DNA of 64,000 nt from Escherichia coli (GTDB lineage: Bacteria; Pseudomonadota; Gammaproteobacteria; Enterobacterales; Enterobacteriaceae): NCBI RefSeq assembly GCF_003334335.1, contig NZ_QOWQ01000021.1. One strand, written 5' to 3'. The position numbers and the translations under genes are program-made. Below, in pieces: positions 2,934 through 4,137 of this stretch. The notes beneath the pieces are model-generated. The model saw nothing but the letters and a program-made list of their open reading frames with translations. It had not been told where the DNA came from and searched no databases. Every line of letters starts with the position of its first letter. The first letter of the stretch is position 1.

Positions 2934-3056
2934 GGGGAGTGATGATACATCAGTCACATTAAACATGAAAACAAATCGTTTTAGGTGAAATACAAAAAGA
3001 ATAGTGATTAAATATCAAATGGATATGCTTTAAATCTAACCACAGTAAAGACGAGT

Positions 3057-4001
3057 ATGATTTTTCTCAAGAATGGCGAAAGTTTTATTCGCGTGAATGA
3101 CTGGGCAGAAATTCAGGCGAGAGAGTCTTACTATCCCAAATTAGAGTTAAATGATCAGCAACTCTCTGACGTTTTTGGTTACTACGATGACCTACCAGAG
3201 GAAATTCCATGTGGAAAATCAAATTGCCGCAAAGGGCATAAAAAGGGATTTCTGGTAGTTACGAAAGAAGGATTTGAAACGAATATCGGCCATGTATGTG
3301 GAACTAATGTTTTTGGTATAGCATTTGATAATTTAGCAATAGAACTTTGCCGAAAAGCAGATTTCCATCGCTTACTTACCGCACTTAAAGAGGCAAAAGA
3401 TGATATTTTTAGCTATTACAAACTCAAAGCCAAAATCGAATCTGGGCGTCCATCACTAACTGAGGTTGCTCATAGAATACTTGACATGAAAGACCCTAAA
3501 ATCATCGGGCGTGCGGCTTATCAAACATTGAAAAAGATGGCTGCTTCTGGTGATGGGCGTGTTTTCCGCTCAAGATTAAAAAATACAGAAGAGCTAGAAC
3601 TGGACGAAATTATGTCCCAGAAGCAAACAAGCGACTCAGCTCCAAAAGTTAACAACAAAAACAAAACCGTAAATGAACTTATTGGGGTAATACAATACCC
3701 TGAATGCTTGCTGAATGATTATGACATTGCTCTTCTTTATGAAAGAGATATAAAAATGGTTCTGGAAAAATTAAACAAATGTACCCCAGATGAATTGACT
3801 GAAAGAGAGGTGTTGTCTTTTGGAATAAAGGTTTCAAGATTAAGAGAACGCTTTAACTTTGCTCAGGAACGCTTAGAAAAATCCAGGGTTTTTGCAACAA
3901 GAGAAAACCTTAAACCTTTACGTGCATTACTTAACATTCAGAAATCTGTAAGCAATAAAGACAAATTACTATTTAAGAAATTTATGGAAAATTTACCATA
4001 A
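3057..4001 (+). CDS. Hypothetical protein, orphan moron on the strand opposite the late operon (314 aa, family not recognised)
   Basis: Clean 945-nt ORF; AT-rich upstream leader 2940-3056; ends at the bidirectional terminator 4005-4028; Cys/His cluster (CGKSNC...H...C) near the N-terminus. Confidence 0.7.
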   Translation: MIFLKNGESFIRVNDWAEIQARESYYPKLELNDQQLSDVFGYYDDLPEEIPCGKSNCRKGHKKGFLVVTKEGFETNIGHVCGTNVFGIAFDNLAIELCRKADFHRLLTALKEAKDDIFSYYKLKAKIESGRPSLTEVAHRILDMKDPKIIGRAAYQTLKKMAASGDGRVFRSRLKNTEELELDEIMSQKQTSDSAPKVNNKNKTVNELIGVIQYPECLLNDYDIALLYERDIKMVLEKLNKCTPDELTEREVLSFGIKVSRLRERFNFAQERLEKSRVFATRENLKPLRALLNIQKSVSNKDKLLFKKFMENLP

Positions 4002-4004
4002 TTA

Positions 4005-4028
4005 AAAAACCCGCTATAAAGCGGGTTC
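4005..4028. terminator. Bidirectional rho-independent terminator (AACCCGCT-ataa-AGCGGGTT); candidate tR' on the minus strand and terminator of the 3057-4001 gene on the plus strand
   Basis: 8-bp stem; A-run upstream and T-rich tract downstream on the plus strand, T6 downstream on the minus strand; about 110 nt downstream of the Q-like gene. Confidence 0.6.
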
Positions 4029-4137
4029 CGTGTTAATTTTTATATTGGCGCTAAACCCCATAATTAAAATGATACAAGACAATTTTATGCAAAGTCAAGT
4101 CGGTTGCTCAAAAATCTCTCCGCCAAAGCTGTTCAGA

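Follow-up and report, generated by a model that had tools for sequence, protein, structure and literature searches.

Accessory genes of lambdoid phages, the so-called morons, are classically represented by the stx genes in the interval between the late antiterminator gene Q and the lysis genes, and by the promoter–gene–terminator morons of HK97 and HK022. Here we describe a gene which can be compared with these and which lies at positions 3057–4001 on the plus strand of a 64,000-nucleotide stretch of Escherichia coli DNA (assembly GCF_003334335.1, contig NZ_QOWQ01000021.1; the whole stretch is called the window in the following). The gene codes for a protein of 314 amino acids and will be referred to as the cargo gene. 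Like the classical morons it is an additional gene whose base composition deviates from that of its surroundings and which is followed by a terminator of its own, and it is found at the stx site of related phages. However, stx is co-oriented with the late transcript and driven by it, whereas the cargo gene is antisense to this transcript and co-exists with stx2e, stx2i or stx2f in related prophages instead of replacing them. We suggest that this single gene provides the lysogen with a factor for defence against phages or for their exclusion, and we hold this reading to be slightly better than even (probability about 0.55).

A defence gene in the antisense orientation within a late operon has been described before. 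Tai (TaiEcA, orf63 of phi80) lies antisense in the Q-dependent late operon, an organization termed noncontiguous operon, and is expressed in the lysogen, its expression dropping when Q is expressed (PMC11364771). Tai protects the lysogen against other phages, the target being tail assembly (PMC11364771). Both Tai and the cargo gene are single prophage genes which are antisense inside a Q-controlled late operon of the lambdoid type. In contrast, their exact positions differ: Tai is located beyond the lysis genes, close to the packaging module, and is accompanied by the counter-defence gene Ati in the late operon, whereas the cargo gene directly follows the putative late promoter pR′ and terminator tR′. 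An Ati-like partner was not found beside the cargo gene, and no neighbouring gene is conserved across the 47 family loci. Homology of the cargo protein to Tai was also considered and rejected (hhalign probability of 0.2% against phi80 orf63). The layout of the cargo gene is of a known kind, namely that of a prophage moron and, more narrowly, that of a defence gene which runs against the late operon around it.

BstA of phage BTP1 is a prophage-borne abortive infection protein of about 300 amino acids with two domains, a conserved N-terminal domain that putatively binds nucleic acids and a second domain; it is non-enzymatic and has no enzymatic motif (PMC8585504). It shares with the family of the cargo protein that a single gene codes for about 300 amino acids in two domains, that this gene has its own Rho-independent terminator and that it is widespread in Proteobacteria. 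In addition, BstA is often found beside cI, a site at which several genes of the present family are located as well. On the other hand, BstA has a KilA-N-like domain and the present family a beta-rich domain with a Cys3-His pattern, and BstA is co-oriented with cI and contains an internal anti-BstA DNA element, neither of which applies to or was seen for the cargo gene. Homology to BstA was rejected as well (hhalign probability of 0.25%, no match to the PADLOC model of BstA at E ≤ 1). This negative result is meaningful, because the same model scores BTP1 BstA itself at E = 1.9e-124. A third site of comparison is the interval between the portal gene and gpA in which P2 carries old and tin, as a P2-like prophage of Hafnia has a member of the family in this interval. 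Old is an ATPase–nuclease; for Tin, homology to the cargo protein was rejected at an hhalign probability of 0.3%.

The cassette between Q and the tRNA genes

The window starts in the interior of a lambdoid prophage, and with the exception of the cargo gene all substantial genes from position 213 to about 9500 are located on the minus strand. Read along this strand, the order is Q, pR′, tR′, the oppositely oriented cargo gene, tRNA genes, an esterase gene, and the lysis genes, so the tRNA-Arg genes lie downstream of the cargo gene within the late transcription unit. A prophage in E. coli SCU-106 is 99.9% identical to that of the window and is annotated in RefSeq in the order terminase, lysis, esterase, two tRNA-Arg, a plus-strand hypothetical protein, antitermination protein, primase/helicase, repressor region, and integrase. 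An earlier note on this DNA had pointed to a plus-strand open reading frame (ORF) of 314 codons as the sole gene of this orientation in a minus-strand block, and to phage tRNAs beyond it. Both statements are confirmed, the former by the ORF list and by SCU-106, in which the ORF is a coding sequence, and the latter by two tRNA-Arg genes and a degenerate third one. The tRNA-Arg pair (2685–2761 and 2776–2852, minus strand, anticodons TCT and TCG) was found with ARAGORN, with Rfam, and by homology to argN/argO of Stx phages. The third tRNA (2863–2931, minus strand) is at the position of ileZ; it has an Rfam tRNA score of 32.6 bits, was not called by ARAGORN and is named tRNA-Pseudo-TAT in the annotation of phage ON470586.

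This degenerate tRNA forms the border of the AT-rich cargo on the side of the tRNA genes. From about 2926–2935 onwards the window is no longer homologous to the tRNA block of Stx phages, so the cargo spans approximately 2936–4035. The leader of the cassette (2936–3056, plus strand) is indeed AT-rich, as the earlier note had stated, with a GC content of 28% between 2940 and 3056. The GC content of the cargo gene is 36.5%, compared to 51% in Q (4138–4953, minus strand) and 55% in the esterase gene (213–2132, minus strand), and in most of the 47 family loci the gene has a lower GC content than its locus. The cassette is present in 22 of 5,426 complete E. coli genomes, and the tRNA block in 2,916. 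In phi80, whose Q protein is 40% identical, Q is followed by pR′, terminators and the holin gene, and there is no cargo gene. Thus the cargo is a moron by its deviant composition, by a terminator of its own and by its presence or absence between genes which are adjacent in relatives. Judged from its sequence, the segment ~2936–4035 is a moron cassette with its own leader, gene and terminator and of foreign composition, placed in reverse inside what appears to be a Q-dependent late operon.

The leader contains an extended −10-like element TGcTTTAAA at 3026–3034 (TG at 3026–3027, hexamer TTTAAA at 3029–3034) and a weak Shine–Dalgarno sequence at about 3046–3053. A block of about 55 nucleotides 5′ of the ATG which comprises both elements is conserved in the cassettes L010 and L006, whose Q belongs to the same family, and in L002, a plasmid-like contig outside phages. 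We infer that this conserved upstream block may hold a promoter of the cassette's own.

Four nucleotides 3′ of the stop codon of the cargo gene a GC-rich hairpin is found (4006–4029) which both convergent units share. Read on the minus strand, it comprises a GC-rich stem of 10 bp followed by six U residues (4029–4006) and has a folding energy of −20.6 kcal/mol (z = −3.35 vs shuffled sequences). On the plus strand the stem is followed by CCGUGUUAAUUUUU, that is, there is no adjoining U-run. Therefore, the description of the hairpin in the earlier note as bidirectional is only half right: it holds for the minus strand, where the sequence is that of a canonical intrinsic terminator resembling tR′, and not for the plus strand, where the hairpin would be a weaker terminator for the cargo mRNA. 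As hairpins are found in the same place after homologues in other phages and in L002, the hairpin belongs to the cassette.

The minus-strand terminator lies 109 nucleotides past the stop codon of the Q-like gene, in agreement with the distance of about 110 nucleotides given before for a tR′-type terminator, and 40 nucleotides past the −10 hexamer of a candidate pR′ (4098–4069, minus strand). This promoter candidate, TTGACT-18-TATCAT, agrees with the consensus at 10 of 12 positions, and its −35 element starts 40 nucleotides past the Q stop codon. The Q-like protein itself (271 amino acids) matches phrog_127 with E = 4e-98. The −35 region and the sequence past it are conserved in L010 and L006, and the annotated order in phi80 is identical: Q, pR′ with the Q-binding site, terminator. 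At the level of sequence the assignment of pR′ and tR′ is well founded because of these promoter and stem features, the phi80 layout, and the conservation in L010 and L006. Transcription from pR′ to the terminator would be expected to yield a minus-strand RNA of about 60 nucleotides (~4000–4062) unless Q modifies the RNA polymerase. The predicted RNA has the position of the 6S RNA of lambda and overlaps the 3′ end of the cargo transcript; its position also corresponds to that of the small RNA StxS in Stx2a phages.

The Q gene is a mosaic. An identity of 98–99% to the Q alleles of Stx2f-type prophages stops at window position 4310, and the last ~57 codons (4138–4310) have a GC content of 42% compared to 53% in the remainder. 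Because the Q alleles that accompany the two E. coli subfamilies of the cargo gene (see below) diverge past 4310, we conclude that the cargo gene is exchanged as one module together with pR′, tR′ and the C-terminal part of Q.

The protein family

The cargo ORF is a genuine gene on which purifying selection acts strongly. When it is compared with its allele in an Stx2i prophage (95.7% identity), the ratio of nonsynonymous to synonymous substitution rates (dN/dS) is 0.06, and the region is annotated as a coding sequence in all 22 E. coli genomes that carry the cassette. The protein had been called an orphan without family in the earlier note, and this does not hold, as it matches PHROG 7003, a family of unknown function, over its full length (E = 4e-118), and its family comprises at least 550 clusters when sequences are grouped at 50% identity. 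A word-indexed search reached no more than 13 clusters, each at least 59% identical and all from Enterobacterales. A profile search of a database with 1.84 billion representatives found 550 proteins with E ≤ 0.001, of which 292 had E ≤ 1e-10 and nearly all a length of 280–335 amino acids. The hosts of these ~300-residue proteins are Gamma- and Betaproteobacteria.

In an alignment of 131 sequences Tyr43, Cys52, Cys57, Gly64, Gly78, Cys81, and Gly82 are invariant and His61 (99%), Asn76, Phe86, Phe90, Glu179, and Asn284 nearly so. The N-terminal cluster of cysteine and histidine residues to which the earlier note had drawn attention is thus conserved in the whole alignment. Its spacing, Cys52-x4-Cys57-x3-His61-x19-Cys81, indicates a putative structural zinc site. 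The cluster is part of a conserved beta-rich domain (residues 1–95) with a mean pairwise identity of 41%; the remaining residues 96–314 are helical and variable (22%). The protein is soluble and basic (pI 8.8) and has no hydrophobic or transmembrane segment, and the family as a whole would be cytoplasmic. An alternative assignment of the cluster to an HNH or beta-beta-alpha-metal nuclease (H61/N76/H79) was rejected: there is no Pfam HNH match among the 131 members, position 79 is occupied by H, N, K, S, G, or Q, and the zinc site requires His61 to complete its set of four ligands. A conserved catalytic motif is absent from the family.

A structure prediction and a PADLOC search, both of which the earlier note had proposed, were carried out. 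With the 131-sequence alignment AlphaFold2 gave a confident model (predicted local distance difference test, pLDDT, of 96; predicted template modelling score, pTM, of 0.86) which consists of the beta-rich N-terminal domain followed by long helices that are interrupted by a small beta insertion; an alignment limited to the 14 close homologues had led to a useless model with a pLDDT of 56. Among solved structures the model has no match, and when either alignment was compared with the sequences in the PDB, only chance or low-complexity helical matches were obtained. In AFDB50 there are 168 matches, all named uncharacterized protein and all from Gamma- and Betaproteobacteria. Neither the cargo protein nor the 131 aligned members nor 10 distant members have a match in Pfam, NCBIfam, or PADLOC. 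Curated libraries do not yet cover this protein family.

Settings of the homologues and of the cassette

The position antisense directly after Q is shared by the window, the prophages of SCU-106 and STEC799 (the two of the 22 carrying E. coli genomes in which the layout was inspected), phage vB_EcoS-611R1 and a prophage from an enterobacterial metagenome. Stx2i and Stx2e prophages have the order Q, cargo gene, tRNA-Arg, stxAB. In prophages of Morganella, Providencia, and Ewingella a family gene is likewise found antisense directly after Q. These Q proteins belong to three families, phrog_127 (E. coli, Morganella, and the metagenome contig), phrog_304 (Ewingella) and phrog_753 (Providencia). 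In E. coli the same slot can be occupied by a second subfamily which is only 25% identical and which is present in 16 of the 5,426 genomes. Among these are Stx2f prophages with the order Q, family gene, stxA2f, and in the Stx2f strain 2015C-4136CT1 the gene is intact (306 amino acids). In E. coli M8 (L009, 2780–3699) and four other mouse isolates the gene of the second subfamily has an in-frame stop at codon 11, and in the Stx2f phage phi467 (L018, 5001–5875) it is split into two coding sequences.

Other phages carry the family gene elsewhere. Next to cI and antisense to the early-left operon it is found in the Klebsiella phage ST13-OXA48phi12.2, in a Serratia prophage and in F116-like phages of Pseudomonas, and in the P2-like Hafnia prophage it occupies the above-mentioned tin/old site. 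Altogether the family gene opposes the adjacent lytic operon in at least nine independent phage lineages, and the phages in which it was found are all temperate phages or prophages. At three of these sites a second, unrelated cargo ORF accompanies the family gene, namely in the Hafnia prophage (L013, 8952–9776, minus strand, 274 amino acids), in the Klebsiella phage (L017, 5639–6073, plus strand, 144 amino acids), and in the Pseudomonas phage Atpa001 (L060, 3952–4941, plus strand, 329 amino acids). None of the three ORFs has a PADLOC or NCBIfam match, and they may be further uncharacterized accessory genes of the same hotspots.

A scan of species-representative genomes added 38 further loci outside phages. 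The largest family of neighbouring genes was found in 7 of the 47 loci, all of which reflect synteny in Psychrobacter. The neighbours were checked by a Pfam census and, for 30 selected neighbours, against PADLOC, which is a small and partly hand-picked sample. Within 5 kb of the family gene, defence genes are present in six loci (capH–capP, GajA, GajB, type I restriction–modification, MADS-like, and AbiJ-like), a number that comes from this small sample without statistical control. The type I genes include a specificity subunit and a restriction enzyme, and among the other neighbours are toxin–antitoxin genes and a transposase of the Tn3 type. The Pfam domains among the neighbours include Abi_C (twice) and HEPN as well as toxins of the ParE/HigB type, integrases, and resolvases.

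The genes capH and capP are regulators of CBASS-type defence operons which lie downstream of them. On chromosome 1 of Cupriavidus necator UYPR2.512 (L041, 6457–8906) capH (E = 1.8e-25) and capP (E = 1.7e-71) are located directly upstream of the family gene on the same strand. In this one locus the family member takes the usual place of the regulated defence operon; the window contains no such genes. At another locus (L034) a capP–capH pair is found 2.5 kb from the family gene on the opposite strand.

Some members reside in ordinary chromosomal settings, for example, between folB and a recombinase gene or beside nrdA. The latter is the case in seven Psychrobacter genomes (within L042–L051), in which the family gene is just downstream of nrdA together with variable small ORFs. 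Two of these ORFs share neighbour families with a pair of genes in L002, one of them with a ParE-toxin domain, and the site resembles a small islet of variable genes amid core genes. In Xanthomonas (L028, 7349–7996), Lysobacter (L036, 7307–7996), and Luteimonas (L039, 7313–7996) a conserved ORF of 215–229 amino acids is located on the same strand and either stops a few nucleotides short of the family gene or has a slight overlap with it. This ORF of the Xanthomonadales has no PADLOC or NCBIfam match; the pair may be a two-gene variant.

Two members of the family have also been scored in a machine-learning screen. DefensePredictor, a classifier based on a protein language model and published in Science in 2026, was applied to 3,000 E. 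coli genomes and lists 1,041 uncharacterized clusters predicted to function in defence in its Table S10 (PMC13092281). Among them are WP_096111884.1 with a mean log-odds of 4.67 and a minimum of 3.58 and WP_032207072.1 with a mean log-odds of 7.87, both classified as 'Predicted novel defense gene', both without homology to known defence proteins and both above the strict cut-off of 4 (PMC13092281). We found that WP_096111884.1 is the allele of the Stx2e and Stx2i prophages and 98% identical to the protein of the window, that the identifier of its cluster, WP_000576620.1, is the allele of an stx-negative prophage like that of the window, and that WP_032207072.1 is the protein of the second subfamily. 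The family accessions that we checked do not appear in the tables of tested units of this study (PMC13092281).

The surroundings of the cassette in the window are as follows. Between the tRNA genes and the esterase gene, which is NanS-p-like, there is no stx gene according to the ORFs and the nearly identical annotated prophage, and the slot is therefore empty as noted earlier. The only Rfam matches in this interval are AsxR, an 'anti-stx2' small RNA (2285–2337, plus strand, 63 bits, which is exactly the gathering score), and STnc100 (2341–2550, minus strand, 158.7 bits). Sequences which usually flank stx are therefore kept despite its absence. On the other side of the cassette Q is preceded by replication genes (4953–8438, comprising 4953–5810, 5810–6778, and 6780–8438) and a further gene (8852–9160), all on the minus strand. 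An ORF of 437 amino acids (15609–16922, plus strand) has the position of the tyrosine integrase in the SCU-106 prophage, and judging by this position the prophage probably ends nearby. The rest of the window is chromosomal, with Rfam matches to the small RNA MicL (381.9 bits) and C0465 (111.6 bits) at 23902–24209 (minus strand) and 38200–38277 (plus strand), respectively.

Possible function of the cargo gene

The features of the cassette and the settings of its homologues might give a hint how the cargo gene is used. The occurrence of homologues in prophage defence sites and in chromosomal defence neighbourhoods argues for a role in defence, which now has better support than at the time of the earlier note. 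The scoring of the 98%-identical allele by DefensePredictor is independent support for this role. We suggest that the cargo gene would be transcribed from its own weak promoter as long as the prophage is repressed. The combination of a conserved N-terminal domain and a variable C-terminal domain fits a division into effector and sensor. With less confidence, we infer that the variable helical half would recognize a component of the invading phage and that the conserved zinc domain would carry out or couple a common step, by binding rather than by catalysis, the bound partner probably being a nucleic acid or a protein of either the host or the phage. Upon induction, RNA polymerase modified by Q would pass the shared hairpin and run antisense over the cargo gene. 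The lowered expression of the cargo gene would spare the prophage's own lytic cycle. The earlier note had already regarded the gene as antisense to Q-dependent late transcription and silenced by induction. The layout part of this view is borne out by pR′ and tR′, by the recurrence after three Q families and by the precedent of Tai; the lowering of cargo expression by antisense transcription is probable by analogy, though we are less confident of it than of the defence role. Abortive infection, which the earlier note had named beside exclusion, has no support above other modes of defence.

Several observations weigh against a role in defence. The cargo protein and the 10 distant members match none of the 5,027 PADLOC models, no enzymatic or pore-forming effector is recognizable, a transmembrane segment is absent, and we found neither a paper on the protein family nor an experiment on any member. 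Inactivated copies occur in some lineages, and in the small, partly hand-picked survey many immediate neighbours had no defence match. A consensus promoter scan of 2940–3056 called no plus-strand promoter, and the Shine–Dalgarno sequence is weaker in the copy of the window than in its relatives. Moreover, the score of 4.67 with its minimum of 3.58 is near the cut-off of 4, and of the 94 high-scoring units that were tested 42 protected (PMC13092281).

The most serious competitor, although clearly the less likely explanation, is a moron for lysogenic conversion or regulation without any role in defence, in which the zinc domain would bind DNA or a host protein and alter host physiology or gene expression, for example, in stress, colonization, or fitness. 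The anatomy of a moron and the lysogen-type orientation fit such a gene equally well, and a Cys3-His domain with long helices is compatible with an oligomeric regulator that binds nucleic acids. The lack of a defence-type effector domain in the cargo protein and the ordinary settings of some members (folB–recombinase, nrdA) would also be in line with it. Against it, the association with capH–capP, Gabija, restriction–modification, and Abi genes and the use of the P2 old/tin hotspot are typical of defence genes, a conserved domain next to a fast-diverging half and the patchy distribution suggest an arms race, and the scores of both E. coli subfamilies exceed the strict threshold of DefensePredictor. 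Less probable still is a function in the control of the late switch, by which the protein or the convergent transcription into pR′/tR′ would restrain leaky late transcription of the lysis genes and, where present, of stx2e, stx2f, or stx2i in the lysogen, or tune its timing upon induction. This idea draws on the location of the family gene immediately downstream of Q in three Q families and directly between Q and stx in Stx2e, Stx2i, and Stx2f prophages, on the joint exchange of the E. coli genes with the Q C-terminus, pR′ and tR′, and on the hairpin which is shared with the promoter-proximal terminator of the late operon. However, many members are far from Q: some are adjacent to cI, others are found in P2-like prophages, on the plasmid-like contig or, in Beta- and Gammaproteobacteria, within islands of the chromosome. 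The terminator stays with the cassette also outside phages, and phages with a related Q such as phi80 work without a cargo gene.

We consider it improbable that the protein is an anti-defence or host-takeover factor which aids the phage during infection or induction. It is a small, fast-evolving accessory protein of phages, and accessory regions harbour defence as well as counter-defence genes. Nevertheless, the gene opposes every neighbouring lytic operon, so that lytic transcription would hinder its expression instead of driving it, the only phages in which it was found are temperate phages and prophages, and it is also found outside phages beside defence genes and under a capH–capP cassette. 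Finally, the ORF might have arisen by chance in AT-rich intergenic DNA or be the remnant of a gene in decay, as the weak Shine–Dalgarno sequence of the window copy and the interruption of some relatives could suggest. This explanation is refuted by the dN/dS of 0.06, the full-length conservation across hundreds of clusters, the pLDDT of 96 and the annotation as a coding sequence in 22 of 22 genomes. Thus, we prefer the reading as a defence or exclusion factor of the lysogen.

A more far-reaching version of the defence reading is speculative and, taken as a whole, unlikely. According to it the family would be a new and widespread class of single-protein immunity with a zinc-binding fold not seen before and without an enzymatic effector. 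In lambdoid prophages it would be coupled to the late switch: one hairpin would serve both as the terminator of the immunity gene and as tR′, the read-through by Q would switch immunity off and lysis on (in relatives together with Stx2e, Stx2i, or Stx2f), and convergent transcription would damp the basal expression of toxin and late genes in the lysogen.

Even if the assignment to defence is wrong, the cassette is a well-delimited and widespread prophage moron. If it is true, a family of at least 550 clusters whose members are now called hypothetical proteins would gain a function, and with it there would be a new immune mechanism without a recognizable effector domain for which a confident model and four obvious residues to mutate are at hand. 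The cargo gene would then also be a second, independent example of how a prophage avoids autoimmunity by an antisense position in the late operon, an answer that recurs after three Q families. For Shiga toxin-producing E. coli this would mean that late transcription crosses the cargo gene head-on before it reaches stx2e, stx2i, or stx2f, which could affect the yield and the inducibility of the toxin.

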